Below, piece by piece: positions 947 through 19,610 of a stretch of DNA of 64,000 bases. Both the position numbers and the translations under genes were made by a program. Where the stretch lies: assembly GCA_963828165.1 (NCBI GenBank), contig CAWHDR010000001.1, positions 2,112,001-2,176,000 on the forward strand, given 5' to 3'. The DNA is from an uncultured Chloroflexia bacterium (lineage in GTDB: Bacteria; Chloroflexota; Limnocylindria; Limnocylindrales; CSP1-4). The notes beneath the pieces are model-generated. The model saw only the letters and a program-made list of their open reading frames with translations. It searched no databases and had not been told where the DNA came from. The number at the start of each line of letters is the position of its first letter. The stretch's first letter is position 1.

Positions 947-1187
947 CGCGGTCCTCCTCGGGGATGTCGTCTTGGCATCACGATACCCATTAGACCGGGA
1001 TGGGACGCCGAACTCATCGGTCGCGATGCGCAAGAGGCTCACGCCCGCCGTCTTGGATCGCCCATTTGCCGGATGGGCACACATCGGCCAGCTCTACGTC
1101 GCCATAATGGTGGTCGCGGGACCGCGCGCGGGTTTCGTGGGAGCGACCGGGCCACCGGCCGTTGGGGACGTTGGGGAGGGATCCGCG

Positions 1188-4100: not shown

Positions 4101-7100
4101 CTGTCCGTCACGGTCGATACCATCGCGCCGACGGCCCCCACCGGTCTCGACCTCGCGGCTGCGTCCGACTCGGGCAGTTCTTCCACCGACAACATCACGA
4201 CGGACACAACGCCGACGTTGACCGGTGTGGCCGAGGCCGGAACCACCGTGTCTCTCCTCGACGGAGCGGCGCCGGTCGGTTCCGCAACCGCGACCGGCGG
4301 CGCATGGACGATCACCTCGTCGGCCCTGTCCAGCGCCGCTCACACGTTTACGACAAGGGCGACCGACACCGCGGGAAACCTCGGCCCAGCGTCGACCACG
4401 CTCGTGGTCACGATCGACGCCGTCGCTCCCTCAGCGGACTACACGACCCCGAACGAGGCAACGACGATCGCGATCAGCGCATCGAGTTACGGCGTTGGCT
4501 GGAGTGAGAACGGAACCGGTTCCACCGTTGCGACGCGTTCGCTCCAACGCAGGAGCGGGACGGTCGTGACGCCCGGGACCTGCGCCGGCGTCTCCTTCGC
4601 CACCGACGGTTCGCCGGTGAGTACCACGTCGCCGGTCACCTCGAGCGGCCTGACCACGGAACGGTGCTATCAATGGGTGCAGACCCTCACGGATACGGCT
4701 GGCAATAGTGCGCCGATTTCGAGCGGATTCGTCATCGTCGGGGCGGCGGGGCCGTCATCGGAGTTCACCACCCCCAACGAGAGCACGACGAGCCGGCAGT
4801 ACACGACCGGCTATACGGTCGACTGGATCGAATCCGGGCCTGTGGCGACAAGCCGCTCATTGCAGCGGCAACGCGCGGCGATCGCCACGGCCGGCTCATG
4901 CGCCGGACTGACCTTCGCAGACGACGGAGCGCCGATCACCACGGCGGCGCCGGTCGTCGTGACCGGGCTCGCCGGTGGCTACTGCTACCAATGGACGCAA
5001 ACGCTCACCGCCGGCACCAGCAGCACGGCAACCAGTGGAACCGTCCTCATCGACGTCACGCCGCCGACCGTCACCGTCGGAACCCCGGCCGTCGATGTCA
5101 TCCAAGCAGCCACGAACCTGACCGTGAGTTGGACGGAGGCGGACGTTCACGCAGGCGTGGTCAACCGCACCGTCCAGCGCGAGGTTGGCCTTCCGATCGA
5201 GCCGGGTACTTGCACCGGTGTCATATGGGCCTCAGATGGGCCGACGAGCGTGAACGCCTCGCCCCTCGGCGCCACCGGGCTCGTGTCTGGGCGGTGCTAC
5301 CGCTGGGTCATCACGGTGAACGACCGGGCCGGCAATGGATACGCACAGCCGACCGGCCTCGTCCTGGTGGATACGTCTGCTCCGGACGTGTCCTGGACGG
5401 CGCCGGCGGGCCCCCCGCCGGTGGCCCACGGCGCGACCGCGATCGACGTCGACTGGATCGCGACGGACGCCGCGGCCGGCCTGACGAGCACCTCGATCCA
5501 GCGTGAGGCCGCTGCCCCGTCGGGCGGCGGCTGCCCCGCGAACGGTTGGACGAACGACGGATCCGCCGCGACGACCGTACCTCCGCTGCATGTCGAAGGC
5601 CTCCAGCCGTCAACCTGTTATCGCTGGGTCCTCACCGCGTCTGACGCGGCGAACAACATCCGGGTCTCGACATCACCGACGGTCCTGACCAGCGCCGCGC
5701 TCATCGAATCGTCCGCGCCCGGCGACACGGTCTTCGAGATCGAACCCGTCGATGCATCGCTGGACGGCTCGATCTCCGTCGCGAGCGTCGAACTCCTCGT
5801 CGACGGGGCGACCGTCGGCTCCGATGCGGCGACCCCGTTCACGATCCCGTGGACGACGACCGGCCTGACCGATGGCCATCACACTCTCGCGCTCCGAGCG
5901 CAGCTCGTGGGCGGGGGATCCGTCACCTCCGCTCCCGTATCCGTCCAGGTCGACAACGCACTATCCGCGGCCGAGCGGGTGCTCGCCGACGACACCAAGG
6001 GCCGGCTCACGCCTGACGAGTTCGCCCTCTACGGCGTGTACGCGGTCGGGTCCGTCTGGTCGCTACCGCCGCGCTATCAATCGGATACCGCGTCGAAAGG
6101 ATTCGTTGATGATGCGCAATTCACCGCCAACCTCGAAGACCTCGAGCCGGCGACCCAGAATGAGATCAACGCCTTTCTTGCCCAGCCCTACCGAGGCGAA
6201 GGCTATCAGCCGCCGCCGAATGCGCCCTTCGAGGAGCGCGACCACCAGTGGGTGGACTGCTTCGACACGCTCATCCTCGTCCGCTGCGAGCGCGAGTACG
6301 ACCACTTCACCCTCTATTACGGCCAACCGAGCGACACTGACTCGACCCGCGTCGGGACCGCCGACACGCTCGACGACAGCCTCCTCGCGAACAGCGGCCC
6401 AGATGGCGTCCCCGACTACATCAACAAGCTCGGCATCGAGCTCGAGCGCGCGCGAATCCAGTACGCGGCGATGGGCTATCAGCAGGTCGGTGACCGGATC
6501 AGCGTCTACCTGAACGCCGGTGTCCTCTGCCCCGAGACTCGGGAATGCGCTCACGCGGATGGCAACATCTACGTACCTCCGACCACGAACCGGCCGTACT
6601 ACACCGCCAGACACGAGTTGTTCCATCGCTTCCAAGCCAACTACCTCGACAAGCTGGTCGTCGACTATTGGTTCTGGTTCGAAGGAAGCGCTGAGTGGGC
6701 TACCAAGATCCTCAATACGGCCGAGCGTCCCGGCCCCGAATACGCGGGCAGCCTCGTCCCGTATCTGAAGTCGCGAAACGAACCGCTCACCAAGAACGAG
6801 GATGGCCGCAAGTACGGCACCTGGCTCTTTGCGACGTACCTCCAACAACGGTTCGGGTCGGATTTCATCCATAAGACTTGGGACACGGACGGCGAATTCT
6901 GGGACGTCGTTTCGCAGGCGGCCGCAGCGGAGCCGAATGCGGCGACGCTTGAGGAGATCCTCCTGGACTACGCCGAGAGCGCCTACCTCTTCGATTTCGC
7001 GAATGAGCCCGACTTTGCTGACTGGCGCGAAGACAGGCTCAACCACGACGATCCTGTCGAGCCTGAAGTCCACGGGGACGCGGTCAATCCCAACGGAAGG

Positions 7101-8933
7101 CCCCACACGTCGATACCGGTCGCCCCCGGAGGGGCGCCCGCCTGGGGCGTCGTCGCGGTCCACCCAAGCGGCTTCGACAGCCTTGAATTCGTGCCGCCTC
7201 CCAACACCTTTGGGACGATCAAGATCGACGTGTTCCAGGCAGACGCCCTTCAGGTGTCCGCAAAGCTCATGCGCATGGGTGCGTACCCGACCAACGTGAC
7301 GCCGCCCGATGGGCCGATCGCACCGGTGTGTGATACCACTACGCTCAATTTCCCGACCGATCCGGCACAAACCGTGCCCGGCCCCGCCGCCGACCCGATC
7401 GAGTGGGGCCACGCCGAGGTGGAGATCGCCATCAACCCGGCGTGCCCCTATGCGGCATTGGTCCTTGCCCACACCCTCGGAGAGGGCGACGTCAAGCCGA
7501 TCTGGTACACCGCCACGTTCGTCGAGGACGCCCGCCGCATCGACGACTTCAACCGGCAATACACGGCGACGGCGACGTCCGACAGCTACGGCGTCTCGTC
7601 CTCCGGTGAGCCGTGGATCGGCGCAGGCATCGAGGCCCTTGGGTCGCGCGGAGCTGACGGTTCATACGGGTATGTAGATGGCAGTTCGCCGACGCCCCAC
7701 ATCGAGCTCCCGGCGTCCCTACGCGGCCAAGAGTTCACGGCCACGGTTCGCTTCCGATTCAACGGTCCGCCGGCGACCACGACCTCACAGGAGTCCAGCT
7801 GGCTGTACGTCGGTGTCAGCGACATCGTCAAGCACGGCTACTTCTACGGTGAGCAATCGCCGTTCGTGGAGATCGACTTCAACAACGGCCTTTCCGAAGG
7901 CAACGGCCAAATGGGCTTGTGGGGTGGCGACGCGAACGAGGACCCCGATTGGCAAGGCGACTGGGTGTTCATCCCGACCGAGCAGGACGTCGTGGACTTC
8001 ACCTCCAGCACGTGGTACACGCTGAAGTACCACTTCGTGCCAGGCGTCAAACACGAAAGCAAGATGTGGCAGTTGGGGGACCCGGAGCCCGACTATCAGA
8101 TCTCGGACTCGATGGACTATCGATGGGCGGAGGCACCCGGCGTCCCTGGCGCAGGTCCGATCCAGGGCAAGTACCTGTGGCTCGACGTACGCGGCTTCAA
8201 CGGCCTCGCGGAAGTGGACTACCTCGATGTGGTCGGCGGCGGGGGGAACCTCGACGATTTCGAGCGAACAGTGGCGTCCGGTTGGGGCACGGCATCGAGC
8301 GCCCTGTCGTGGTCGGCCACGGGTGACACGGACACGCTCCTTGTCGACGGTTCGAACGGTGTCGTCGCTGCGCCAGCTCAGACCCTGACGATCGTCCGGC
8401 CATCCATCGATGCGCCGGTCGACAGCACGACTCCGTGGGGTGCGACTGACGCATTCACCATGACCTCACGCTTCAAGGTGGACCATGTCTACTCGAGCTC
8501 GGCGTACACGACACTGGTCTACAAGTTCGAGCGGGAGTCTCCGAGCGACGACTCTCGTTTGTTCGCGTTCGAAATCACGAATCACACGAGCCCGGGGAAC
8601 ATCTACGCGACCGCTACCAACCAAGGCGGCCAATCGAACGAGTTCTACCTACCCAAGGCCGATTGGATCGCTGACTGGTACATGATCAAGTGGGAATTGG
8701 AACCGGGCGTGTCTTCGAAGTTCAAGATCTGGCCCGAGAGTGAGCCCGAACCGGCTGCCTGGACAGGGGAGCTCGTCGACACCGGCGGGTTGAGCCTGCG
8801 CAACACGCACCACACGAGGTTCACGATCGAGGTGTGGAACAGCGCTGCCGGTCTCAACAACGCGGCGACACTCGCGAATAACGTCCGGATCGACTACATC
8901 CATTTCGAGGAGGCGGCGTCAGCTGGTCCGTGA
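1188..8933 (+). CDS. giant secreted protein: signal peptide, WapA/RHS-type N-terminal region, DNRLRE domain, Ig-like repeats, HExxH zinc metalloprotease domain, C-terminal beta-rich repeats
   Basis: ATG 1188 after GGGAGGG; hydrophobic leader; DAHV..NF..LRWDLS..W.ESGVTWN..PRLSVTY; SDTG.S..DNIT repeats; HELFH at 6612 followed by WFEGSAEW. Confidence 0.85.
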   Translation: MVGRLRPRALALLMVALVSWQGGSAPAAFAADPSPEHPPSESAGPSPVLPTPPPDAEPSAQPTTAFPPLPAGADRPPAGRELVERRTERSQTFDNGDGTLTTLFFTTPVFFKVQDKGSWRPIELGFLPSSDPGLAAISDRAPTSVAVANEAGADSFLTLRAKGRTIRFGLPADLRKVAAKTKPTFDGPAADFADFQPGVDLRILAGAHGAKSFFIWRERPAKTTIRYVVDAPGLTLRKQADGSIAMVDPAGTEVARIPRPFAVDSTKDAFAGSGRFTEKVSLAIAKDGRTVTISVDPDWLAAAEFPVHVDPSTGWVYNAGTNAYGDAHVASNYPTLNFDDYQRPDSPFYHELWNGTDPSGTSGTSYDFLRWDLSAINNSTIDSASLALVPYHQYYNAPTQETTYARRVTSSWTESGVTWNAKPTYTTTGTATQGCVEGNWCTWAVTSIVQVWATTPSTNFGFQIDTIGKNSTFWKRFIASEQGGTNRPRLSVTYHTPTASPATPTGWRNSRALAWTYADTSGHAGSHYEFDVDTDANFAAPLTHDGAAVAGAGTTASIPTSVTLTSGTTYHWRVRVKDGTSWSPWATRTFQWDATAPTGTISLNGGAAYATSSTVTATLSMSDAHSGPSQMRFSTNGGTSWSAFEPYATSKAWALPAGDGPKTLSVQFQDAATNTSATYSDALTVDTVNPLGTISINGGAVSTNTTSVTLNVTASDATSGVAATHSSNDGTTWTLVTGTTVPWTLTTGDGTKTVYHRVTDGAGRTTTVTDTILLASDSTPPGAPSQPDLVAASDTGASSTDNITNDATPTFTGTAEADSTVTIHDGPTAVGSGLASGGVYTVTTSSLPNGVRSITATATDASNNTGPSSTALSVTIDTTSPAVPSTPDLDAASDSGSSTTDNVTTDTTPTLSGTAEAGTTVSLLDGATPSGSGTATAGAWTITASVLSDGSHALTVRATDTAGNQSGVSSALSVTVDTIAPTAPTGLDLAAASDSGSSSTDNITTDTTPTLTGVAEAGTTVSLLDGAAPVGSATATGGAWTITSSALSSAAHTFTTRATDTAGNLGPASTTLVVTIDAVAPSADYTTPNEATTIAISASSYGVGWSENGTGSTVATRSLQRRSGTVVTPGTCAGVSFATDGSPVSTTSPVTSSGLTTERCYQWVQTLTDTAGNSAPISSGFVIVGAAGPSSEFTTPNESTTSRQYTTGYTVDWIESGPVATSRSLQRQRAAIATAGSCAGLTFADDGAPITTAAPVVVTGLAGGYCYQWTQTLTAGTSSTATSGTVLIDVTPPTVTVGTPAVDVIQAATNLTVSWTEADVHAGVVNRTVQREVGLPIEPGTCTGVIWASDGPTSVNASPLGATGLVSGRCYRWVITVNDRAGNGYAQPTGLVLVDTSAPDVSWTAPAGPPPVAHGATAIDVDWIATDAAAGLTSTSIQREAAAPSGGGCPANGWTNDGSAATTVPPLHVEGLQPSTCYRWVLTASDAANNIRVSTSPTVLTSAALIESSAPGDTVFEIEPVDASLDGSISVASVELLVDGATVGSDAATPFTIPWTTTGLTDGHHTLALRAQLVGGGSVTSAPVSVQVDNALSAAERVLADDTKGRLTPDEFALYGVYAVGSVWSLPPRYQSDTASKGFVDDAQFTANLEDLEPATQNEINAFLAQPYRGEGYQPPPNAPFEERDHQWVDCFDTLILVRCEREYDHFTLYYGQPSDTDSTRVGTADTLDDSLLANSGPDGVPDYINKLGIELERARIQYAAMGYQQVGDRISVYLNAGVLCPETRECAHADGNIYVPPTTNRPYYTARHELFHRFQANYLDKLVVDYWFWFEGSAEWATKILNTAERPGPEYAGSLVPYLKSRNEPLTKNEDGRKYGTWLFATYLQQRFGSDFIHKTWDTDGEFWDVVSQAAAAEPNAATLEEILLDYAESAYLFDFANEPDFADWREDRLNHDDPVEPEVHGDAVNPNGRPHTSIPVAPGGAPAWGVVAVHPSGFDSLEFVPPPNTFGTIKIDVFQADALQVSAKLMRMGAYPTNVTPPDGPIAPVCDTTTLNFPTDPAQTVPGPAADPIEWGHAEVEIAINPACPYAALVLAHTLGEGDVKPIWYTATFVEDARRIDDFNRQYTATATSDSYGVSSSGEPWIGAGIEALGSRGADGSYGYVDGSSPTPHIELPASLRGQEFTATVRFRFNGPPATTTSQESSWLYVGVSDIVKHGYFYGEQSPFVEIDFNNGLSEGNGQMGLWGGDANEDPDWQGDWVFIPTEQDVVDFTSSTWYTLKYHFVPGVKHESKMWQLGDPEPDYQISDSMDYRWAEAPGVPGAGPIQGKYLWLDVRGFNGLAEVDYLDVVGGGGNLDDFERTVASGWGTASSALSWSATGDTDTLLVDGSNGVVAAPAQTLTIVRPSIDAPVDSTTPWGATDAFTMTSRFKVDHVYSSSAYTTLVYKFERESPSDDSRLFAFEITNHTSPGNIYATATNQGGQSNEFYLPKADWIADWYMIKWELEPGVSSKFKIWPESEPEPAAWTGELVDTGGLSLRNTHHTRFTIEVWNSAAGLNNAATLANNVRIDYIHFEEAASAGP
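3516..4415 (+). repeat. three 300-bp intragenic repeats encoding Big_13-like Ig domains
   Basis: Units start at about 3516, 3816 and 4116, each P.L.AASD(T/S)G.S.TDN.T.D.TPT..G.AEA. Confidence 0.85.
4416..5690 (+). repeat. four degenerate ~105-aa Ig-like repeats with a conserved cysteine pair
   Basis: Recurrent QR...C...(F/W)..DG....GL....CY.W..T pattern. Confidence 0.7.
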
Positions 8934-9394: not shown

Positions 9395-9505
9395 GAGCGT
9401 TTCGCCGACTTCGCGTTCGTGTTGGGAATCGATGAGTTTCGGCGCGGTACGCCGTTACACCTCCAGATCGGCCGATCCGGACGGTCACCAGTGGAGGCTC
9501 GAACC

Positions 9506-9957
9506 ATGGACTACACGCTCGAACTCATCGTGGTCCCTGTCAGCGACGTCGATCGCGCAAAGGACTTCTACATCAACAAGGCCGGCTTTGAGCTGCTCGT
9601 CGACACGAGTGCCGGCCCGGACTTCCGCGTCGTCCAGCTCGTTCCGCCGGGGTCCGCGTGCGCGATCGCGATCGGGACAGGGATCGGCTCGATGCCGGCG
9701 GGCTCGCTCCATGGGCTGCACCTCTGCGTCAGCGACATCGAGGCGGCGCGCGAGGAGCTGTCCGGCCGTGGCGTGGAGCTGTCCGACACCTTCCACTACG
9801 GCGAGGCCGGCCAGACGCCCGGCATCGACCCCGAGCGGCGGAGCTACGCGACGTTCATGCCGTTCCAGGATCCCGACGGCAACACCTGGCTCGTCCAGGA
9901 AGTCAAGCGGGACTGGAAGGTCACGACGTCAAGATCGACGAGGAGGCCGCCGCGTGA
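9506..9957 (+). CDS. VOC/glyoxalase family protein (apparent 1-nt frameshift near 9910)
   Basis: LELIVVPVSDVDRAKDFY...FQDPDGNTWLVQE; alternative-frame tail EGHDVKIDEEAAA* ends in a GTGA overlap with the sigma gene. Confidence 0.8.
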
Positions 9958-10922
9958 CCGATCAGGCCGGGGCCGCATTCGCCGGTGGGGAGTCCGCATT
10001 CGCGGCCCTCACCGAGCGATACCGGCGCGAGCTTCACGTCCACTGCTACCGGATGCTCGCATCGTTCGACGAGGCGGAGGACGCGGTCCAGGAGACGTTC
10101 CTGCGGGCATGGCGGGCCCGCGAGACCTTCGACGGCAGCGGGCTGGTGCGGGCGTGGCTATATAAGATCGCCACGAACGTCTGCCTGGATGCCATTCGGC
10201 GGGCGGGCCGGCGGCTGAGCGCCATGGAGACGATCCGCGAGGTGCCGTGGATCACGCCGTATCCCGACCGCCTGCTCGACGAGATGGCCCCGACCGAGGA
10301 TGAGCCCGACGCCGTCGTCGTCACGCGTGAGACGATCGAGCTCGCGTTCCTGGCGGCGCTGCAGGTCTTGCCGCCGCGGCAGCGGGCGACGCTGATCGCC
10401 CGCGACGTGCTGGGGTGGCCGGCGAGCGAGACGGCCTTCGCATTGGACACGACGGTCGCGTCCGTGAACAGCGCGCTGCAGAGGGCGCGGGCGACCCTGC
10501 AGGCCCACATGCCCGCGAGGCGGACGGACTGGTCCGCGGGCGAACCGAGCGAAGCGGAACGGAAGCTGCTCGCCAGCTTCATCGAAGCGCACGAGCGAGG
10601 CGATGCCGCCCTCGCCGTCTCGATCGCGTCGAAGGACCTGCGCATCACGATGCCACCGGCACCGATGCTGTTCGAGGGGATCGGCGTCATCCGACCGCTG
10701 CTGGAGAACGCCTTCGCCGACGGCAGCTCGTGGCGGCTCGTTCCGACGGTGGCCAACCGGATGCCAACGGCCGCGAGCTACGTCAAAGCGCCCGGCGACG
10801 ATACGTACCGCGCGTTCAAGCTCGACGTCCTGCGCGTGGTCGACGGCCGCATCGCGGAGATCACGACATTCGGCTGGTCGCTGTTCCCGCACTTCGGGTT
10901 GCCGGAGACCGTCGAAGCGTAG
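9954..10922 (+). CDS. ECF sigma-70 factor with C-terminal SnoaL-like extension (SigG-like)
   Basis: HCYRML..DEAEDAVQETFLRAW, WLYKIATNVCLD, LPPRQRA, SVNSALQRAR; SnoaL-like tail TMPP...ANRMP. Confidence 0.9.
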   Translation: MTDQAGAAFAGGESAFAALTERYRRELHVHCYRMLASFDEAEDAVQETFLRAWRARETFDGSGLVRAWLYKIATNVCLDAIRRAGRRLSAMETIREVPWITPYPDRLLDEMAPTEDEPDAVVVTRETIELAFLAALQVLPPRQRATLIARDVLGWPASETAFALDTTVASVNSALQRARATLQAHMPARRTDWSAGEPSEAERKLLASFIEAHERGDAALAVSIASKDLRITMPPAPMLFEGIGVIRPLLENAFADGSSWRLVPTVANRMPTAASYVKAPGDDTYRAFKLDVLRVVDGRIAEITTFGWSLFPHFGLPETVEA

Positions 10923-10931
10923 CGGGCCCCC

Positions 10932-11168
10932 CTACGCTTCGATGAGCTGGACCCCGGCAATATCTCCTGCCGCGATCGAGGCGGCCTGCCCGAATGGGCC
11001 GGCAGGTATGTATACATAATTGGGGACGCCACCCTGCGCATAGAAACGATCCGCCGGCCCGGTCATTGCCGCAAAGACTTGGGCGTGGAGCGCTTCTGCT
11101 GCCGCGTCGTCGAGAGGCCCGGACTCATAGAACGAGCCGTCACGCTTCGAGACTCTAAGGATCTTCAT
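10932..11168 (-). CDS. hypothetical protein (78 aa)
   Basis: AAGGAG RBS; protein-like composition; last gene of the minus-strand operon. Confidence 0.65.
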   Translation of the reverse strand: MKILRVSKRDGSFYESGPLDDAAAEALHAQVFAAMTGPADRFYAQGGVPNYVYIPAGPFGQAASIAAGDIAGVQLIEA

Positions 11169-11219
11169 CTGGTCTCCTTGCTTAGCAGCCGTCCACCATG
11201 CCGCCGAAGCGGGAATGGC

Positions 11220-11453
11220 CTACGGACACTTCTCCTTGTGGAGCGCGTCACCACCGCAAATCACACCCGTGACGATGAGCTCTCCCACGATGCCAAAACG
11301 CTGTGCCATATACGGTTGAATTTGTTTCAGCACACTCTTGGTGCTCGGCCAGTACCTGCAGAACGCCGTCCAACTCTCAGGCTCACCCGTCGATACGTTC
11401 ACACCGGCCCGAAGCTCTCGGGCAACTTCACTTACTGTTGGGCTTGCTGCCAT
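11220..11453 (-). CDS. hypothetical protein (77 aa)
   Basis: GGGAGG RBS before ATG 11453; MAASPTVSEV...FCRYWP...ICGGDALHKEKCP. Confidence 0.6.
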   Translation of the reverse strand: MAASPTVSEVARELRAGVNVSTGEPESWTAFCRYWPSTKSVLKQIQPYMAQRFGIVGELIVTGVICGGDALHKEKCP

Positions 11454-11519
11454 CTCTGACCTCCCAGTCCGCTGTGGAGCTCCTTCCGAGAATTGCAATC
11501 ACTCGTGGCGCGAACTCCG

Positions 11520-12077
11520 CTACTCAGTCGGACCGTTCGTGGCGGCGGAAAGTTCGACCGCCACAGGGTCCACGCTGATCACGGGCCGGACGCCGTCATC
11601 GCGTTGCCGAGGCACACGAATCCACCGGACGGTCCCGTCGCCGCCGTGGTAGGACTTCTGTGCAGCGAGTTCCGAATTGAAGTCGATCCGGATGGGACCC
11701 CCTTCTCCGCCGTGGCTCGCCAACCACGGGTTTCCACCGGTCGACAACACGAGACAGACGTGATTGCCTGTTCCGCGCCCGAACACCACCAGGTCACCGA
11801 CTCGCACACTGCGGCGAGCGATCTGCGTGCCGTGTGAGAGGATTGTGCCCGTGTAGCCTTGGCCGTTGTATCCGAGGCCGTTCGGATCCGGAGCCCCCGC
11901 CCAGTTGTAGCAAATGGTCACGAACGCAGAACAGTCGATCGTGAGGGGGAGCTTCCGTCGTTTCGCTCGCCCAATTCCTTGCATCGGGCGTGACTGCCGG
12001 TAGTGGATCTGCCCCTTCCTGGCGATCATCCACTCAGCTTCATCGTTAGTCGCCTGGATGGCTGCGTCATCTCCCAC
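11520..12077 (-). CDS. NlpC/P60 family peptidoglycan endopeptidase
   Basis: IDCSAFV catalytic Cys, GDLVVF, NHVCLV His; AAGGAG RBS; no signal peptide seen. Confidence 0.8.
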   Translation of the reverse strand: MGDDAAIQATNDEAEWMIARKGQIHYRQSRPMQGIGRAKRRKLPLTIDCSAFVTICYNWAGAPDPNGLGYNGQGYTGTILSHGTQIARRSVRVGDLVVFGRGTGNHVCLVLSTGGNPWLASHGGEGGPIRIDFNSELAAQKSYHGGDGTVRWIRVPRQRDDGVRPVISVDPVAVELSAATNGPTE

Positions 12078-12093
12078 TTAGCTCTCCTTTAAA

Positions 12094-13407
12094 TCAACCC
12101 ACTCCGGCGGTGAAGTCGATCTCCATGGCCCATGAAGGGTGGTCGATCATCGGATTACAATTCCCCTGGAGCCGCCAGGTGGCCTCATTTCGATGGTGTT
12201 CGTACGCATCCGGTGGCCCTGCGGTGTGCCAGGCAAGGAGCGTCTCGAGCCGGAATACTCCGGTGGCGAGCGCTGGGTAGCGAAGAAGGAAGTACAACGC
12301 CGCACGACTGACCGCACCTTTCGACCGATGGGGTTCGAATCCCTCGGCTTCCCGCTTGCCGCACTTGTCCCTGATCACCTCTCGATAGTCATGGAAGTCG
12401 GTGTAGGCGTAATTGCCCCGGAAGCTGTTGCATTTCGCCTCACATGTGAAGAGATGGTGGAGGTCACCCCGCATCGGTTCCTCGTAGTCGAACCATGACT
12501 GTGGAACTACGTGCTCGCAGTTGTACGGGTAGCGAGCATCAAGCTCGGACTCCGCGATCGACTCTTGGACTAGCTCTCTCCGTCTGGCTCGGACTGCCAG
12601 ACCCTCGGCGATCAGCGCCCGAGGGTCGTAACGGTCGCCGGTGTAGATACTCTCGATGTGACCTTCCGCGCGAAGGTCGACACATGGATACAGGAACAGC
12701 GGGGGGTCGTACGGTCGAGGTGTCGTGTGCGTCTCCGCGAGGACCTTCGAGATGCGCCAGAATCTGTCGGTTGGATTTTCCGCACCGACGACAGCATCCC
12801 AATACCCGGCGATGGGGCCGCCGGCGGCATACTGACCCAATTCGCAAGAGGCGAGTTCCTCGAACGCCAGTGCTTCGACTTCCGTGGACTCTTCGACGCC
12901 CGCGTTCAACGTCGTTGGCGTTCGGCTCCTGGCGGTGCCGTACCGCCCGTCCCTGAACAGGATTCCTTCCGCCCTGCGCCGCCGGACCAGCCCCGCCATC
13001 CCGCCATTCGTCCAGCGAGCGAGCTCGCTCGGAACCGACTTTCGATCCCCTGCATTCAGCTTCTTCCGGAGGGTCGAGCCCTCAAAAGCTCCCAGACCGA
13101 CGTTGAACGCGAAGCTTACGAGCGCGTCGAATTCATGCTGGGCCATGCGAACGTTGATGAGACGTTCGAGGCCAACTGCGAACCTCTTGGCGTCCTGACG
13201 CAGAAGCGCCAGACCTTGTGTACGAGTGATCCCGCGTTTAAATTGTGCCGGCTCTGAGCCATTACAAATTCCGTGGTGGACGAGGTGTCCAAAGCCGATC
13301 GTGCAATGACCCGCCGGATCGTTGTAGAGGCGTCCCTCAAAGCCCTCCCAGCCTCCGATGAAGCGTACGCCGCGATCGCTGATGGCCCTGGCAATCTGCT
13401 CATTCAT
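12094..13407 (-). CDS. GH24 phage-type lysozyme fused to endonuclease I (EndA-like His-Me) domain
   Basis: WEGFEGRLYNDPAGHCTIGFGH gives E-x8-D-x5-T; FDALVSFAFNVG and GLVRRRRAE; C-terminal NCEHVVPQSWF..PMRGDLHHLF....CNSFRGN, KGAVSRA, GNCNPMID; single uninterrupted frame. Confidence 0.9.
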   Translation of the reverse strand: MNEQIARAISDRGVRFIGGWEGFEGRLYNDPAGHCTIGFGHLVHHGICNGSEPAQFKRGITRTQGLALLRQDAKRFAVGLERLINVRMAQHEFDALVSFAFNVGLGAFEGSTLRKKLNAGDRKSVPSELARWTNGGMAGLVRRRRAEGILFRDGRYGTARSRTPTTLNAGVEESTEVEALAFEELASCELGQYAAGGPIAGYWDAVVGAENPTDRFWRISKVLAETHTTPRPYDPPLFLYPCVDLRAEGHIESIYTGDRYDPRALIAEGLAVRARRRELVQESIAESELDARYPYNCEHVVPQSWFDYEEPMRGDLHHLFTCEAKCNSFRGNYAYTDFHDYREVIRDKCGKREAEGFEPHRSKGAVSRAALYFLLRYPALATGVFRLETLLAWHTAGPPDAYEHHRNEATWRLQGNCNPMIDHPSWAMEIDFTAGVG

Positions 13408-13432
13408 ACGATGGACCCCCTCCCATGCGTCC

Positions 13433-14236
13433 CTACCAGGCGATGTGGAGGTGCGTGTCGTGGCCTCCGTCGCCAGGGCCGAGGACCTCGGTCGCACCGA
13501 GCTGCCGACATCGGTTCATAAACGCGCGGAATCCTGGGTGCGAGCGATTGATCGGCCGCCCATTGAGCACGTCGCAGTCGAACGCGACGCCCCGGTAGTG
13601 CCGGCTATTCACCGAATGCGATCCACCCGCGATCTCGGTCAGTCTGAATTTGTTCCTCTGCGCCAGCGTCTTCAACGCACGCAGCATCGCGACGCTCAGC
13701 CACACGGATCCACCTGGAGCGTTGCCATATGAACTGCGCTTTGCAGGGCGCCCAGCAGCGGTGTCCGTCATGTTGTGAAGGGCCGTCGCCTGGTCCTTGA
13801 CACCCGAGATGTGGAAGTTGAGCAGTGCGACCTTGCGCCCGACCAGAATCTCTTTCGCGATCTGTGCTCGCTCGGAAGCACGGTCCTCCGGAGCGTCACT
13901 GTCATCGGGCGGGGCAGCCGGCGCCTCTCCTGAGTCCGGTTCCTCGTCAACGCTTCCTGCCACGAGGTCTTCGAAACGCTCCAGCTCCCGTCGAAGCCTC
14001 GACTCGTATCCGATCTTCAATGACTTCCCCGTGGCGGTCACGGTAGATGCGGCGCGCGCTGCATCCACAAGGACTGTCAGCTGATAGGAGTCCCACCACT
14101 CATTCCCAGCACGAAATCCACCGTCATGCTCGTCGTAGATCCCACCGATCCGCATGTCCTCTGCGGCCAGATAGCACCATGAGAGTGTCTCAGCCCGGGT
14201 TAGCGGTACCTCGAATTGGGTTTCCAGTTCAACCAC
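13433..14236 (-). CDS. peptidase M15-like Zn D-Ala-D-Ala carboxypeptidase with unknown N-terminal domain
   Basis: SHSVNSRHYRGVAFD (SxH-x6-D) and HDTHLH motifs; GGGAGGG RBS. Confidence 0.75.
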   Translation of the reverse strand: MVELETQFEVPLTRAETLSWCYLAAEDMRIGGIYDEHDGGFRAGNEWWDSYQLTVLVDAARAASTVTATGKSLKIGYESRLRRELERFEDLVAGSVDEEPDSGEAPAAPPDDSDAPEDRASERAQIAKEILVGRKVALLNFHISGVKDQATALHNMTDTAAGRPAKRSSYGNAPGGSVWLSVAMLRALKTLAQRNKFRLTEIAGGSHSVNSRHYRGVAFDCDVLNGRPINRSHPGFRAFMNRCRQLGATEVLGPGDGGHDTHLHIAW

Positions 14237-14264
14237 CGTCGATCCCTCCCTGTGCTCCCGGTCC

Positions 14265-15056
14265 CTATCCAGTTGGCGTATCCAGATGCCGCCGCAAGAA
14301 TTTCAGCGTCTCGGCGGCGGCAACTTCCGCGTCGGGGTTCGTGGGCGCGACGACGCCGTCCTTTAGGACTGAGTGACGGTGTGAAGCCGCGGTTCCTACT
14401 TGCCGCCGCTCGCACGCCGAAAACACGATCTGAGTCCGGCCATATCGCTCGCTGGGTGACATCCAGTCGCCTTCATATCGCATCGTCCTGATCGACGCTC
14501 CCGGGCCACGAAGCCCTTGGACCTCTGCTAAGTCGCTTTCCGATAATCCAAGGGCTTGCCGCTGGGTTCGGGTGATGGGGAACGGCAAGGATGGCTGGCT
14601 CATGACGGCGGCCGTGACCGTGGGTTCGACCATCGCCCCCAGCGCGAAGCCTCCCGAAAAGCACATCCCGATGACGACTACCCGCGACTTGCCCCCGTTT
14701 GCGACCGTTCTGGCGTACGCTCGCAACCACTCGACGATGGCTCCCGTCCGGCTTGACGAGAGCGCGGCCATCTCTGACGCAAAGCAAATTCGCAGGATGC
14801 CCTCGAGGTCGCGCAACCTCCGTGAACCATGGCGCGGCATCTCCAAGAGCTCGGGAAGGAGTACCCGGAAGCCGGCCGCTTGAAGCCAGCCCGCGATGGC
14901 TAGCGTCGACGACGAGATGCCCGGTGATTCATGCATCAGGATGACGGAGGGCCCCCGTCCCTCGAGGACCAACACCCGGCGAGTGATCACACCGCGCGAA
15001 GTTTCGGCCTCAAACGTGACCGACGAGTAGCCGGGCGGCGTGGGCACCGGAGCCAT
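14265..15056 (-). CDS. dienelactone hydrolase family protein
   Basis: VILMHESPG and GMCFSGG Cys nucleophile elbow; late His in RHSVL. Confidence 0.85.
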   Translation of the reverse strand: MAPVPTPPGYSSVTFEAETSRGVITRRVLVLEGRGPSVILMHESPGISSSTLAIAGWLQAAGFRVLLPELLEMPRHGSRRLRDLEGILRICFASEMAALSSSRTGAIVEWLRAYARTVANGGKSRVVVIGMCFSGGFALGAMVEPTVTAAVMSQPSLPFPITRTQRQALGLSESDLAEVQGLRGPGASIRTMRYEGDWMSPSERYGRTQIVFSACERRQVGTAASHRHSVLKDGVVAPTNPDAEVAAAETLKFLRRHLDTPTG

Positions 15057-15061
15057 AGGTC

Positions 15062-15991
15062 TTACGCCGATCCAGTCGGGCGGTTGCCGTCCGCGACTAG
15101 GGCTTCATGGATTACCGGTGGAACCGCGGCGTGGTGCCAGTATGAAGAATGCGCGAGGCTCCAGGACCGTTCCTCGCCCTCAATCCTGTGGTCGCGAACC
15201 GCCGACCCGTCAGACAGTCGAAAGACCTTGCCTGCCAGGAAGGCGAGCGGATCCATGGCGTGCCAGATACTGAGCCACGACCCGATCGTGTCGGGAAGGA
15301 CTACGGGTCGTCCAGGAACATACGGCTCGAGCGCCCTCGCGCCGCCGCTCGGCGGAAGGAGGACACGCTGGCGTGGATCCAGCACGTGGAGTGCGGCCGA
15401 CTGACTTCCGACCGTGATCAGGTGCTTGATATGGATTTCGGGTGCCGTGCTAGCCGCGGCGTCGAAGGCGATGATCCCGCCCAGGCTATGCCCGATCACC
15501 GAAATGGGGCGATCGGCGGTTCCTAGGGTCGGATCGATGCCACGAAGTACCTCGCGCATTCGCACCTGGATCCGATCTCGAGCACTGACGTAGGTAAAGA
15601 CATCCCCGATGCCTTCCGCCGCAGGCGGTAGCGTCGCGACGCGGATCTTGGTCGTCGCTCGCTCCGCCCAGTCCTCGAACGGCCATTTGGTGAATAAACG
15701 ATCAATGAGCCAACCGAGCCGCCCGGGCAATCCGAAACCCGCGCCCACGGAAGGGATGTCGAGTCGGATCGTCGCCATGGTCTCGATCCCAGGGATCGTA
15801 TCGACGATGCCGGCGAAATCCGGCTGCAGATCACCCCAGTACGCGGGATAGAACCGATAACGAGGACCACCGGCGATCGCGTTCACAGTTCGCTGGAGAG
15901 ACTCGACTGACGCGCCAAACGAACTGGCGTCGCGGTTGGCCACGCCGTAAATCACGAGGACGGGTTCGGCCTGAATGCCCAAATCCCCCAC
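15062..15991 (-). CDS. lipase-like alpha/beta hydrolase
   Basis: GHSLGG, LITVGSQ, DPLAF, AHSSYW; GAGGAGG RBS. Confidence 0.8.
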   Translation of the reverse strand: MGDLGIQAEPVLVIYGVANRDASSFGASVESLQRTVNAIAGGPRYRFYPAYWGDLQPDFAGIVDTIPGIETMATIRLDIPSVGAGFGLPGRLGWLIDRLFTKWPFEDWAERATTKIRVATLPPAAEGIGDVFTYVSARDRIQVRMREVLRGIDPTLGTADRPISVIGHSLGGIIAFDAAASTAPEIHIKHLITVGSQSAALHVLDPRQRVLLPPSGGARALEPYVPGRPVVLPDTIGSWLSIWHAMDPLAFLAGKVFRLSDGSAVRDHRIEGEERSWSLAHSSYWHHAAVPPVIHEALVADGNRPTGSA

Positions 15992-16001
15992 TGCCTCCTC
16001 C

Positions 16002-16643
16002 TCAAATCCCCGGAAGCATACGCTCGGTCCGAGCGTTCAGCGGCGTGATTCGACCCTTGCCGGCTGGAAGAAGCTTCAGCCTTTGCCTTGAAAAATCTGC
16101 CGCCCGCTTGCGACGGGCGGCAAACCCCCAGCCCGAGGCTCCCGCCACCGTATCGGCGTATACGGCCCGATACTCCTCAGAGCTGGTAGCGAAATTGCAC
16201 GGCTCAAACGCATTCAAGAAGTCCTTGGCGATGCCGCCACCGAGCACGCCGTCGAAGTCATCGAACGCCTTGATGAATGCGGCCGACAGGAATCCGGTTA
16301 CGGCCGCGGCAGAAGCGGTCAGAACCTGTTTGGTATCTGCCGGAGTGCCCTCCGGCGTCTGCTGAGCCAGCCACACAGCGACCACGATGGACGCAGCCAC
16401 CGCGATCGCTGGAACCGCCAGGAGGGTCAGCGACCAACCTTCGAGGAGTGGGAGGGCGCCATTCGGATTCTTGCGAAGCTGCGTTTGGCCCACGCGCCGC
16501 GAAACAAATCCGATGAGCATTACCGCGGCCGTAACGACGATCGGTACGGCGAGGGAAACACTTGTTTGATAAGCGAGCCATGCCAGACCCACGCCGGCGA
16601 TTGCGGCAATTAGGCCGGGGAGGGCTTTGAGCATGGCGCTCAT
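16002..16643 (-). CDS. hypothetical membrane protein (about 4 TM helices plus basic tail)
   Basis: Four hydrophobic segments; ATG 16643 overlaps the upstream stop (ATGA). Confidence 0.7.
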   Translation of the reverse strand: MSAMLKALPGLIAAIAGVGLAWLAYQTSVSLAVPIVVTAAVMLIGFVSRRVGQTQLRKNPNGALPLLEGWSLTLLAVPAIAVAASIVVAVWLAQQTPEGTPADTKQVLTASAAAVTGFLSAAFIKAFDDFDGVLGGGIAKDFLNAFEPCNFATSSEEYRAVYADTVAGASGWGFAARRKRAADFSRQRLKLLPAGKGRITPLNARTERMLPGI

Positions 16644-16891
16644 TGGTCGACACGTTCGCTGCAATGTCGCGGATTGTGATTGCAGCAATAGCGAAGCCCG
16701 TCGTCACCTAGCTCCAGATGCAAAGGAGAAGGAGGGCGCGATCGATGGCATTCACTACCCTCGGCCGCAACAACGCTCAGGACGCGCGACGAAGCAAGCG
16801 AACGGAGAATCTGCGAGTCCGGATCCTCTGCGCGATCCGCCGCCTCCAGGAGTGCGGATCGCAGGACAAATTCCAGTCGATCGTTCTCCAT
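16640..16891 (-). CDS. hypothetical protein (83 aa) with Cys/His-rich C-terminus
   Basis: GGGAGGG RBS; ECH...YCCNHNPRHC; ATGA coupling to the next gene. Confidence 0.6.
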   Translation of the reverse strand: MENDRLEFVLRSALLEAADRAEDPDSQILRSLASSRVLSVVAAEGSECHRSRPPSPLHLELGDDGLRYCCNHNPRHCSERVDQ

Positions 16892-17208
16892 ACTCGTGCC
16901 CTCCCAGCGTGGACGATGGGGCGGCGTAGTCGTGCCACCATCCCAAGTGCGCGCATATATATCGCACCGCTGTCAATCCCGAAGTCAAATCACAGTTGTT
17001 TCCACCTAGTCTGTCTGGATTGCGGCCATCGCTCGTCGTCGGCGTCGGCCTGTTTTTACCGCTTCGCGGCAGGCCCGGTCATCTTCCTCGTGGCGACTGA
17101 TCGCAAATCCGGGCTGCGGCGACCGATCTCGGTGCTCCAAGCACTCGAGTCGAGGGATTGATTCACGGGAACAGTGGTTGGCTTGGACAACGCTGCGCAT
17201 CCCCGAGA

Positions 17209-18429
17209 TCACGACGTTCGGCCCGGAACGGTTCCGCGTGTTCGGGCTGCCGGAGACCCTCCCGACCTGATGTCACGATGCGGCCCCGCGGCGTCGTCAC
17301 CCGGACCTGCCCCCTCAATCACCACGATCGCCAGCAGCGCCGCCGCGACCGCGGCGAGCGGCCAGACAGGTGGCATTGACGCCACCAGTGCGAGAGCGCC
17401 GAGCATCACGGGAAGGATCAGGAGCCGGGGCACCAGGATCCGGCCGCCGAGCAATCGATACGACAGCGCCGAGAAGGCCACGAACAGCGACACGCCGATG
17501 CCGAGTGAGGCCAACACGGCGGCCGAGGCGGGTTCGTCGGGATGTGCCGCGATCTCCTCGATCGCCACCGCGAACCCGACGATGCCGCCGATCAGGGGGA
17601 AGTGGGCGAGGCTGAACGCATCCCGCGCCAGCGGGCCCAGTCGCTCGGGCGGGGCTGCCGCGTATCGATGCTCGAGCGCCTCCTTCAACCAGCCGAAGTA
17701 GGTCCACCACAGCAGGCTGGCGACGAGGATCGTCACGACGGCGGCCGACGCCAGGGCCACAGTTCGCTCGTCACTGGCCACCGCGGTCCCCGCGACGATG
17801 AGGGACTCGCCGATCGCGATGATCACGAACAGGGCGTGCCGTTCGGCGAGGTGCGACGGATTGAGGTCCCAGCTCGCGCCCCGGCCGGCCCACGCCGCCG
17901 CGATCACGTCGGCGACGATCGCAAGGAGCCAGAACAGAGGCCGCAACGACGGATCGACAACGGCCCCGATCAGTACGAGCGCCAGGCCGATGGTCGAGAG
18001 GGCCGACCAGGCGATCACGACGGTATGGCTGGCGTCGGCGCGTTCGCGATCCACGCCCACCTGGAGGGCCAGCCCGAGCGCGCGGACGAGGACGTACGGC
18101 ACCGCGAACCAAAGAGCGTCTTCGGCGAAGGCGCGCGTGACGGAAGCCGCCATGACCAGAGCGACGCCAGTCGCCACGAGGGTCACAACGCGAACGCCGG
18201 GATGGGTCGTGTCGGCCGGGTTGAGCGTCCACGTGAACTGCGTCCACGCCCACCAGATGAGCCACCCCAGCAGGATCGATCGGAGGACGCCGTCGGGTGT
18301 CAGGTCATGCGCCGTCAGGGCGGTGAGCTGCGTGATCGCAAAGACGAAGACAAGGTCGAAGAAGAGTTCGACGAAGGTCACCGATTGCGGGTCGGATGTC
18401 CGCAGATTGGACGGGAGTCGCGCACGCAT
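17209..18429 (-). CDS. ltrA: low temperature requirement protein A family
   Basis: VTFVELFFDLVFVFAITQL, IWWAW, HLAERHALFVIIAIGES. Confidence 0.9.
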   Translation of the reverse strand: MRARLPSNLRTSDPQSVTFVELFFDLVFVFAITQLTALTAHDLTPDGVLRSILLGWLIWWAWTQFTWTLNPADTTHPGVRVVTLVATGVALVMAASVTRAFAEDALWFAVPYVLVRALGLALQVGVDRERADASHTVVIAWSALSTIGLALVLIGAVVDPSLRPLFWLLAIVADVIAAAWAGRGASWDLNPSHLAERHALFVIIAIGESLIVAGTAVASDERTVALASAAVVTILVASLLWWTYFGWLKEALEHRYAAAPPERLGPLARDAFSLAHFPLIGGIVGFAVAIEEIAAHPDEPASAAVLASLGIGVSLFVAFSALSYRLLGGRILVPRLLILPVMLGALALVASMPPVWPLAAVAAALLAIVVIEGAGPGDDAAGPHRDIRSGGSPAARTRGTVPGRTS

Positions 18430-18560
18430 CCCGGCAGCGTAGCGGACGCCGAAACCTCAAAAGGAGTCAGTAGTCCGTATGGGTGATGACCTCACCGAAA
18501 CAGGCCGGGATACTAGTGGTCCGGGCGCCGCGCGTGGTGCCATCGTCACCTGGGGGATCG

Positions 18561-19610
18561 GTGTCGGAATTCTGCCCGCAATGCGGGGCAGCGCGCCTTG
18601 GCGCGTTCCGCTTCTGCCGCGGTTGCCGTCTCGACTTCGACGCGCTCGTGCCCGATGGCGGAGCTCCTGTTGCGAGCCTCCCTCCTAGTCAACCACCCTT
18701 GGCCGGCCCTGCCGCTGGCCACACGGGTCGCCGATTCACGCGACGTCGCGTGCTCATCGGCTGCTTTGCCACCCTGTTTGGGCTAGCCGCCATCGGATCG
18801 CTCGTGCCCCCAGATCCCGACCTTGGGACGGCCGCGGTTTCAAATCCGACGCCGACGGCGCTCGTTACGGCGACGCCGGCGTCGACTGACGAACTTCTTC
18901 CGGGTCCAGTCGCCGCATTCGGTCCGATTGGTCCGACGACGGAGGCGACGGTCGTGCGGGTCGTCGACGGTGACACGATCGTGGTCGCCTATGACGGCGC
19001 GGAGCACAGAGTCAGGTACATCGGCATGGATGCTCCTGAGACCGAGGATCCGAACAGCCTGATCGAATGGATGGGTCCGGAGGCGAGTGCCGCGAACGCC
19101 GACTTGGTCGAGGGCCGGACGGTCTTCCTCGAAAAGGATGTCTCCGAAGTCGACCGATTCGATCGCTTGCTTCGCCACGTCTGGCTGGCCGAGGGAACCA
19201 ACTGGACGCTGGTCAACCTCGTGCTCGTCCGCCAGGGCGTCGCGATCGCTCGGAGCTATCCACCCGACGTCAGATACGACGAGCTCTACCGCGCCGGAGT
19301 CGCCGACGCGCAGTCGTCCGCGCTGGGACTCTATGGCTCGACACCTGCGCCAACAGCTAACCCAACGGCAAAACCCACGGCCAATCCAACACCGAAACCG
19401 GCTCCGAAGCCAACCCCGCGTCCGACGCCTAAGCCAACGGCGAAGCCGAAGCCAGCTTCCAAGTGCCACCCTTCGTACAGCCCCTGCCTACCCATTGTTG
19501 GCGACCTCAACTGCCCCGACGTAAGGGCCATGGGCAGGGCCCCGGTCGACGTCATCGGGCCAGATGAATACGGACTCGACCGCGACGATGACGGGCTCGG
19601 TTGCGAGTAG
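18561..19610 (+). CDS. membrane-anchored thermonuclease (SNase) with N-terminal zinc ribbon and C-terminal excalibur-like domain
   Basis: CPQCG..RFCRGC, TM helix, VVDGDTI..VRYIGMDAPE..DRFDRLLR, PTPK linker, GLDRDDDGLGCE. Confidence 0.85.
   Translation: MSEFCPQCGAARLGAFRFCRGCRLDFDALVPDGGAPVASLPPSQPPLAGPAAGHTGRRFTRRRVLIGCFATLFGLAAIGSLVPPDPDLGTAAVSNPTPTALVTATPASTDELLPGPVAAFGPIGPTTEATVVRVVDGDTIVVAYDGAEHRVRYIGMDAPETEDPNSLIEWMGPEASAANADLVEGRTVFLEKDVSEVDRFDRLLRHVWLAEGTNWTLVNLVLVRQGVAIARSYPPDVRYDELYRAGVADAQSSALGLYGSTPAPTANPTAKPTANPTPKPAPKPTPRPTPKPTAKPKPASKCHPSYSPCLPIVGDLNCPDVRAMGRAPVDVIGPDEYGLDRDDDGLGCE

Follow-up and report, generated by a model that had tools for sequence, protein, structure and literature searches.

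A mosaic islet of leaderless lytic enzymes in an uncultured Chloroflexia bacterium, a possible holin-style release cassette

Within a 64,000-nt stretch of the genome of an uncultured soil Chloroflexia bacterium (assembly GCA_963828165.1, contig CAWHDR010000001.1, positions 2,112,001 to 2,176,000, forward strand; this whole stretch is referred to as the window, and positions are given in its numbering), a block of ∼6.3 kb is a horizontally acquired islet, inserted at the 3′ end of a sigma-factor gene and carrying nine genes, g1–g9, for three wall hydrolases (one fused to a nuclease), two further hydrolases, a membrane protein and three small proteins. The islet is new to the databases searched and is best classed with cassettes of the holin/lysin release type rather than as a system of a new category; tentatively, it may be explained as a cassette, freed from phage, that would release leaderless lytic enzymes through holin-style lysis. 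Its build is that of a mosaic, in which a lineage-specific 5′ part (g1, g2, the lipase-like g3 and g4) is joined to a conserved five-gene lytic core (g5–g9).

The inserted islet and its conserved core

The block is recognised as an insertion because of a flanking duplication, a lowered GC and third-codon-position GC (GC3) content, and the lack of a copy in genomes of the same genus. A 66-nt direct repeat, the longest of the region in a repeat search, lies at 10848-10913 and 17196-17261 (76% identity); the left copy translates to RIAEITTFGWSLFPHFGLPETVEA followed by a stop, the right copy to RIPEITTFGPERFRVFGLPETLPT followed by a stop, with 15 of 24 residues shared and the stop position identical, and the same type of C-terminal peptide ends the orthologous sigma genes of relatives. 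Between the repeat copies the GC content is 0.61-0.63, against 0.68-0.70 outside, and five flanking genes have a GC3 of 0.72-0.90, against 0.56-0.74 inside the islet. A DNA-level search of 130 other genomes of the genus did not find the islet, 12 of them giving only short matches to paralogues of g4 or of the nuclease; g5 was not found among 200 genomes of the family, and each of the relatives examined has different DNA 3′ of the sigma gene. No tRNA was found in the window. The islet carries no integrase or recombinase gene, and the closest tyrosine recombinase (PF00589) of the same contig lies at a distance of ∼1.67 Mb. Integrated genomic islands are thus resembled in the target-duplicating repeats, the deviant composition and the absence from relatives, and departed from in that the islet has no integrase of its own.

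The features of the islet are, from g1 to g9 and then outside the genes:

g1, 16640-16891, minus strand: 83-aa acidic protein with a C-terminal Cys/His cluster
g2, 16002-16643, minus strand: 213-aa membrane protein (counted from ATG; the database gene call P0201 is concordant)
g3, 15062-15991, minus strand: 309-aa leaderless lipase-like alpha/beta hydrolase of an unnamed family
g4, 14265-15056, minus strand: 263-aa dienelactone-hydrolase family protein
g5, 13433-14236, minus strand: 267-aa M15A-like zinc peptidase
g6, 12094-13407, minus strand: 437-aa leaderless fusion (P0001) of a GH24 lysozyme and an Endonuclease I (His-Me finger)
g7, 11520-12077, minus strand: 185-aa leaderless NlpC/P60 cysteine peptidase
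g8, 11220-11453, minus strand: 77-aa orphan with 3 Cys and one weakly hydrophobic segment
g9, 10932-11168, minus strand: 78-aa acidic (pI 4.7) orphan
Leader 5′ of g1, 16892-17195, minus strand: non-coding, presumed promoter/operator region
Left repeat copy, 10848-10913, plus strand: functional 3′ end of the sigma-70/SnoaL gene (stop 10922)
Right repeat copy, 17196-17261, reading on to 17270, plus strand: displaced remnant of the 3′ end of the sigma gene

From coordinates and sequence, the stop of g1 overlaps the start of g2 in a 4-nt ATGA, the successive gaps from g2 to g9 measure 10, 5, 28, 25, 16, 66 and 51 nt, and GGAGG-type sites lie 5′ of most of the nine start codons. A first-pass annotation of this DNA had described nine co-directional genes with gaps under ∼70 bp, an ATGA overlap and strong ribosome-binding sites, of lower GC content than their flanks, horizontally acquired and without adjacent phage structural, integrase or secretion genes, and this description holds throughout: all nine open reading frames (ORFs) are present on the minus strand, with gaps of 5-66 nt, and the flanking genes (glyoxalase, sigma-70/SnoaL factor, LtrA, SNase-like protein, ion channel) are ordinary chromosomal genes among which a domain scan found no phage, integrase or secretion gene adjoining the islet.

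In the leader 5′ of g1, an AT-rich stretch at ∼16951-16965 sits inside a short imperfect palindrome. Read on the minus strand, 16941-16990 contains two TTGAC motifs followed by the AT-rich ATATATAT between GTGCG/CGCAC arms, a possible promoter/operator. In a consensus scan the minus strand of this leader showed no sigma-70-like site; a promoter/terminator scan picked out a single promoter-like site, which lies on the wrong strand, and no more terminator-like sites than chance would give, and Rfam gave no match at E ≤ 0.1 across 10500-17600. No public sequencing run is listed as holding the islet, and no RNA holder is listed.

The sole related DNA obtained is a 3.5-kb metagenome contig (L017), colinear with 14491-11094 of the window at 83% nucleotide identity (blastn) and spanning the last third of g4, g5, g6, g7, g8 and the first 25 codons of g9; homology starts within g4 at 14491, and upstream of that point 123 nt bear no relation to the islet. 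Between the two sequences the ratio of nonsynonymous to synonymous divergence (dN/dS) is 0.09 for g5, 0.14 for g6, 0.07 for g7 and 0.11 for g8, at dS 0.47-0.79, with higher values for the tail of g4 (0.21) and the start of g9 (0.28; 84% amino acid identity); amino acid identity reaches 93% for g7, and 88% over 57 residues for g8. The dN/dS values of 0.07-0.14 for g5–g8 indicate that the 3′ module g5–g9 is kept by selection. Catalytic columns are invariant in g3, in g5 and in the nuclease domain of g6; the islet genes look live and the enzymes look catalytically intact.

The first-pass annotation had treated the nine genes as one candidate system, proposed a search for their co-occurrence elsewhere and named the lack of it as refuting. 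One conserved system of nine genes is not supported, and co-occurrence is largely lacking: a single contig, closely related, shares part of the set (g5–g9 and the final third of g4), g2 is an orphan, the g4 family occurs in ordinary genus contexts, and orthologues of g3 on other contigs lack a detectable g2 partner, as indeed they must, because the database holds no relative of g2. Taken further, such observations could mean that the genes have no joint function, being unrelated hydrolase genes accreted at an insertion hot spot and sharing a strand by accident, in keeping with the homology break inside g4, the orphan status of g2, the occurrence of g4-type hydrolases alone in the genus and the variability of the DNA 3′ of the sigma gene in every relative examined. 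This is judged quite unlikely: gaps of 5-28 nt, the ATGA overlap and the strong ribosome-binding sites are the marks of co-translation in an operon, purifying selection acts on five of the nine genes, which have kept together, and four enzymes that attack envelope or DNA are not readily assembled by chance.

The lytic enzymes and the membrane protein

The product of g6 joins a lysozyme (Phage_lysozyme, PF00959, E 7.2e-37) to a nuclease (Endonuclease_1, PF04231, E 1.2e-23). The lysozyme half is of the T4/lambda-type GH24 family (phrog_7 endolysin in PHROGs, E 8.5e-42), and it also matches the gene transfer agent endolysin BgtA at E 1.5e-33, under that model's cut-off. Among the best 120 of 2,526 matches from 5.8 billion clusters, GH24 and Endonuclease I are found together in only two proteins, that of g6 itself and a relative at 87% identity (P0002); the fusion is taken to be very rare, since any protein with similarity to both halves should head the match list. 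Scans of genome contigs and viral contigs with the g6 protein found only distant lysozymes (33-36% identity), and a tblastn search of 50,697 phage records gave matches to the lysozyme domain only, none spanning 80% of the protein. Across 28 aligned rows of the Endonuclease I half, the motifs NCEH (with His299) and NSFRGN are invariant, as are Cys297, Cys326 and Cys349 of this clade, Cys322 being present in at least 90% of rows. The signal peptide canonical for the periplasmic enzymes is absent from g6, and stand-alone members of the clade likewise lack one; a trypsin-like peptidase is fused to this leaderless clade in 57 of the 120 best matches. A complex prediction that paired g9, as a possible inhibitor, with the nuclease domain of g6 (185-437; 28-row alignment) returned a score of 0.00, which carries no weight either way.

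The g5 protein has an orphan domain at its N-terminus (∼1-110), which an acidic Pro-rich linker connects to an M15A-like zinc peptidase domain (∼120-267). No Pfam family matched it; the C-terminal half has a match at E 7.6e-4 to the zinc D-Ala-D-Ala carboxypeptidase of Streptomyces albus (PDB 1LBU, M15A), and carries the motifs SRHYxGxAFD and GHxTHxH, with H213, D220, H259, H262 and H264 invariant in 36 sequences. The C-terminal domain occurs in 618 representative clusters and the N-terminus in only one other protein (P0202, 87%); a single-sequence fold (pLDDT 44.7) was unusable. The third wall hydrolase, g7, matches NLPC_P60 (PF00877) at E 8e-6 and 26.2 bits, against a cut-off of 23, with D-C-S Cys49 and His106 as candidate catalytic residues picked by eye; it also weakly matches phage tail lysins (phrog_329, E 2.9e-5), and tblastn found no match to it in phages or plasmids. 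The calls of a lysozyme–endonuclease I, an NlpC/P60 protein and an M15-like peptidase in the first-pass annotation are thereby supported, by Pfam for g6 and g7 and by the 1LBU match with invariant zinc-ligand columns for g5, and its two remaining enzyme calls, a lipase-like and a dienelactone hydrolase, fare likewise.

For the lipase-like g3, Pfam alpha/beta-hydrolase matches are sub-threshold only. Of its 80 homologues, ten are full-length at 48-59% identity (P0122-P0131), and their alignment with g3 shows invariant Ser169 (in GHSLGG), Asp247 and His281. An AF2 model of mediocre confidence (pLDDT 59.9) finds its best fold matches among small lipases, the A. fulgidus lipase, LCAT and the DDHD domain of Nir2, at Z ∼10-11, with 10.2-10.9 for the lipases, so that the term lipase-like appears reasonable, short of proof. 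Two narrower identities were considered for g3 and set aside: that of a bacterial DDHD/iPLA1 phospholipase, for which a motif and a Foldseek match of the mediocre model at E 3.9e-5 and TM 0.36-0.37 are a lead only, and that of a phage LysB esterase, g3 having no sequence match to any phage protein, LysB included. The protein is a short (∼305 aa) form, without the ∼100-residue insert of its plasmid homologues; a paralogue in the same genome lies ∼32 kb left of the window, among uninformative neighbours. Its neighbour g4 matches DLH (PF01738, E 5.1e-10) and has a GMCFSGG nucleophile elbow, identified by eye; paralogues native to the genus match 14572-15032 at 66-79% nucleotide identity, one of them adjoining an unrelated large ORF.

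A hydropathy script, developed in-house and used here in place of SignalP or another trained predictor, gave g2 three strong and one weak hydrophobic segments and an ∼85-aa hydrophilic, Arg/Lys-rich tail (pI 9.9), and found no N-terminal hydrophobic segment in the other eight proteins. The first-pass annotation had spoken of a four-transmembrane protein, of which three segments are strong and the fourth is weak, and of a lack of obvious signal peptides, with which the hydropathy of the eight proteins agrees. In a search of 5.8 billion clusters g2 had no homologue but itself, and in Pfam, PHROGs, PADLOC and NCBIfam it belongs to no family, those of holins included; g1, g8 and g9 have no family in the same four collections. 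Best ESM Atlas scores of 0.78 for g2 and 0.83 for g9 fall beneath the meaningful level (no g9 match reached 0.9). From its topology and position, g2 is a candidate holin-like gate.

Relatives of the parts and the case for lysis-dependent release

The domains of the islet recur in systems aimed at other cells. The M15-like domain is mostly C-terminal, in proteins of widely varying length across the 618 representative clusters; among 47 proteins scanned with Pfam out of 150 listed, chosen as long enough to hold further domains, its partners were PG_binding_1 (15), amidase (4), YkuD_2 (4), GH46 (3), SLT (2), glucosaminidase (2), eCIS_core (2; P0272 and P0289) and Lipase_3 (1), with none recognisable in 13. 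In a sample of 400 other genomes of the phylum the domain was found in seven, six of them from one genus, and one of these six matches a Herpetosiphon aurantiacus plasmid at near-identical coordinates. A 1,515-codon frame in one genome (G451), first taken for a multi-domain protein (P0262), was rejected as a wrong-frame extension; by eye, the real gene appears to encode a secreted protein of the RlpA-like kind, short and with an M15-like domain that is degenerate.

Hydrolase trios that include the M15-like domain lie on pHAU01 of the predatory H. aurantiacus (Haur_5192-5194; L036, 7479-10592) and on Deinococcus aetherius pDAETH-2 (L037, 6440-10121), each made up of a PG_binding/M15-like protein, an amidase and a PG_binding protein, beside a resolvase gene or between IS6 copies, which suggests a mobile bacteriolytic cassette shared by two phyla. 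With these trios the islet has in common the M15A-like catalytic domain (55.9-56.6% identity) and the carriage of multiple wall hydrolases on mobile DNA; unlike the islet enzymes, the Herpetosiphon proteins bear signal peptides and PG_binding_1 repeats, the partners are amidases rather than GH24 or NlpC/P60 enzymes, and the trios include no nuclease, lipase-like enzyme or membrane protein. GH24 relatives were found in five genomes of the same sample of 400. Three of them were scanned with Pfam: the first belongs to an eCIS_core protein, the second forms the tip of an RHS-repeat protein and the third has no other recognised domain. The GH24 lysozyme lies at the end of a 657-aa eCIS_core protein in one genome (L052, G549:C17) and at the end of an RHS-repeat protein with a 3,927-codon open frame in another (L053, G345:C13), with 42-46% identity for GH24.

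Other relatives belong to systems of self-directed death or immunity. Distant homologues of g3 (26-38% identity) are the first gene of an operon in all six plasmid contexts opened, from 13 matching records (L035, L039 and L056-L059, on plasmids of Hymenobacter, Pseudonocardia, Sinorhizobium, Kitasatospora and, twice, Streptomyces). In two contexts the next gene encodes an unnamed protein, in the other four a protein of the caspase family or one with CHAT; in four contexts a MoxR/AAA ATPase follows, and then a large serine protease, FxsT, FxsC or SAV_2336-type protein; CHAT, TerB and C14 domains were confirmed in these operons. In a relative of the same genus (L041, G005:C5:236092-239350), a Peptidase_C14 caspase gene and a CHAT fragment have as their neighbour a leaderless Endonuclease-I gene that is apparently split in two, at ∼15 kb from the orthologue of the sigma gene. 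Alpha/beta hydrolases (as lipid-targeting enzymes), caspases and trypsins are named among the effectors of apoptosis-like bacterial conflict systems by Kaur et al. 2021 (PMC8195603). As relatives of its domains occur in both kinds of system, the islet can be said to gather warheads used against other cells and in self-directed death or immunity.

Under the explanation favoured here, that of lysis-dependent release, induction would let the enzymes build up in the cytoplasm, where the g6 nuclease would be harmless under reducing conditions; the multi-pass g2 would then breach the membrane and allow the wall hydrolases to reach the peptidoglycan, the three of them would cut glycan and peptide bonds until the producer cell lysed, and the wall hydrolases, the now-oxidised nuclease and the lipase-like esterase would be released together. 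PMC5714182 reports Endonuclease-I enzymes that are inactive in the reducing cytoplasm and activated on extrusion, and PMC9527704 describes the release of leaderless proteins by holin/endolysin cassettes no longer tied to phages. The gating role of g2, the co-expression of the enzymes, the lysis and the nature of the benefit are inferred from the genes. In support stand the endolysin-like character of g6, the leaderless state of the enzymes, the three to four hydrophobic segments and basic tail of g2, the conserved cysteines of the nuclease clade, the link of the warhead relatives to the targeting of other cells (eCIS_core, RHS and the signal-peptide-bearing hydrolase trios), and the blank searches of the genome, given below, for genes of a dedicated delivery apparatus.

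Among the closest named counterparts are the holin–endolysin or type 10 cassettes (Serratia ChiW/ChiX, Salmonella TtsA and those linked to Tc toxins), which (PMC9527704) likewise place leaderless hydrolases beside a multi-pass membrane protein, have linked leaderless proteins and no phage structural genes, and in ChiX include an M15-class peptidase. The islet differs from them in that g2 falls in no holin family, in having three hydrolases instead of one and a lysozyme–nuclease fusion, in the lack of a defined extracellular cargo and in its Chloroflexota host, and it is known from its genes alone.

Several observations weigh against this explanation. The membrane protein has no relative and no holin-family match, its holin role being argued from topology and position, and g1–g4 are not shared with the sole related contig, so that the gate and the lysins need not belong together. 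The caspase/CHAT neighbours of distant g3 homologues (four of six plasmid contexts, with an unnamed protein in the other two), the trypsin fusions among Endonuclease-I matches and the broken paralogue beside a caspase gene in the genus point to intracellular death or immunity effectors, not released weapons. No regulator, sensor or immunity family was matched by g1, g8 or g9 in the four collections searched, and the absence of signal peptides was judged by hydropathy rather than by a trained predictor.

Another origin would be that of a domesticated or decaying lysis cassette from a prophage or other integrated element, attached at the 3′ end of the sigma gene and deprived of its integrase and structural genes by internal deletion. 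The flanking duplication resembles an attachment site without an integrase, g6 has an endolysin-type GH24 and g7 its weak tail lysin match, and leaderless lysins beside a multi-pass membrane protein form a phage layout. Against it, the flanks hold no phage genes and the genome (87.7% complete) no HK97 capsid or contractile sheath match; g3, g5 and g7 had no tblastn match in the 50,697 phage records, and pattern scans of IMG/VR with the family alignments of g3 and g5 found no relative. Among the nine proteins, PHROGs matched only the g6 lysozyme and, weakly, g7. Values of dN/dS of 0.07-0.14 at dS 0.5-0.8 argue against decay, and three wall hydrolases together with a nuclease, a lipase-like enzyme and a dienelactone hydrolase exceed the usual phage cassette. 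The islet thus has a phage-type leaderless endolysin without phage or prophage surroundings, and a membrane protein of 213 aa, with three to four hydrophobic segments and a basic tail, of no recognised holin family; a prophage remnant is considered unlikely. Mycobacteriophages combine peptidase, glycosidase, lipid esterase and membrane protein in LysA/LysB/holin cassettes for the lysis of complex envelopes, a mix of activities similar to that of the islet, where the activities are on separate genes, phage context is lacking and g3 does not match LysB.

An abortive-infection or programmed-death cassette, in which the enzymes would destroy the DNA, membrane and wall of the producer itself, triggered through g1/g2 or by transcriptional control, would account for the lack of export signals, for the g3 homologues that open hydrolase, caspase-or-CHAT, MoxR and large TPR-or-TIR operons on plasmids, for the Endonuclease-I clade's trypsin fusions and its Peptidase_C14 and CHAT fragment neighbours in G005, and for the listing of alpha/beta hydrolases as lipid-targeting effectors in PMC8195603. 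Set against the caspase/CHAT–MoxR operons of actinomycete, rhizobial and Hymenobacter plasmids and the systems of PMC8195603, the islet shares the g3-family hydrolase, in those operons the first gene, and an Endonuclease-I clade tied to trypsin- or caspase-like peptidases, and differs in its short form of g3 and in having no caspase, CHAT, MoxR, STAND or TPR gene; scans with Pfam and NCBIfam found none of these in the islet, nor a protease, NTPase or sensor gene. PADLOC-DB 2.0 matched none of the nine proteins at E ≤ 0.01, as the first-pass annotation had expected of a new system. The nuclease family is reported (PMC5714182) to be inactive in the reducing cytoplasm, the closest GH24 and M15-like relatives within the phylum are linked to export, and one lysin would suffice for suicide where three specificities would suit varied foreign walls. 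Such a cassette is held to be rather improbable.

Antibacterial effectors exported without lysis, through a holin-mediated (type 10-like) or novel route and with g8 and g9 as immunity proteins, would match the position of these small genes 3′ of the enzymes, a toxin–immunity layout, the occurrence of the warhead relatives within RHS and eCIS proteins, and the holin-dependent export of leaderless endolysins and other proteins documented in PMC9527704. Pfam and NCBIfam scans, though, found no RHS, PAAR, LXG, eCIS_core or other trafficking domain in the nine proteins, and the 87.7%-complete genome yielded no contractile sheath (PF04984), WXG100 (PF06013), HK97 capsid or eCIS_core (PF13699) match, the last a weak blank, as its control rang in none of 14 control genomes; nothing therefore points to a dedicated route by injection or type VII secretion. 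Compared with the RHS-GH24, eCIS_core-GH24 and eCIS_core-M15-like proteins, the islet has the same warheads and small or uncharacterised downstream genes, without a trafficking module and in a host without a sheath or eCIS_core match. By hydropathy g8 and g9, which have no family, would be cytoplasmic, whereas immunity to wall hydrolases would be needed outside the membrane, and export without lysis is accordingly given little probability.

The two roles put forward in the first-pass annotation, programmed lysis or abortive defence on the one hand and an antagonism cocktail released by lysis on the other, are both possible and are inseparable by sequence alone; with lysis-dependent release as the mechanism, antagonism or scavenging directed at neighbours and paid for by a lysing subpopulation is slightly favoured over abortive defence. 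A more far-reaching version, in which the islet would be a self-contained mobile altruistic lysis weapon, a sensor-less operon that stockpiles leaderless enzymes against wall glycan, wall peptide, DNA and lipid, among them a redox-silenced GH24–Endonuclease I, and fires them by lysis of the producer through a new g1/g2 membrane gate, acting as both abortive defence and bacteriolytic cocktail, seems doubtful; a weapon of this kind would be without earlier description. Were the favoured explanation true, it would place holin-style release of leaderless lytic enzymes outside phages in the Chloroflexota, a phylum of poorly known envelope biology and antagonism; it would offer a natural lysozyme–nuclease fusion of possible interest for biofilm and cell-wall enzyme engineering; and it would join caspase-linked, RHS/eCIS and predator-cassette enzyme families in one operon, hinting at free exchange of warheads between self- and other-directed conflict systems. 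With a single genome and a single, partial relative behind the case, its generality is low.

Genes flanking the islet

On the left, the 496-codon ORF at 9419-10922 represents two genes, a glyoxalase-family gene and the sigma-70/SnoaL gene, a pair kept in at least five relatives of the genus. On the right, the LtrA-family ORF (17209-18429) extends ∼49 codons beyond the end of its alignment with orthologues and overlaps the displaced sigma remnant, and the insertion has probably given it an artefactual annotated end. The following ORF (18483-19610) is a second nuclease gene near the islet and unrelated to it; the staphylococcal-nuclease domain of its product is accompanied by a zinc-ribbon-like Cys motif at the N-terminus, a hydrophobic segment and a C-terminal part rich in Pro, Thr and Lys. 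Further left, a 2,681-codon ORF (888-8933) with Big_13, Big_6 and Big_7 immunoglobulin-like repeats and a weak DUF6055 match probably encodes a giant surface protein.

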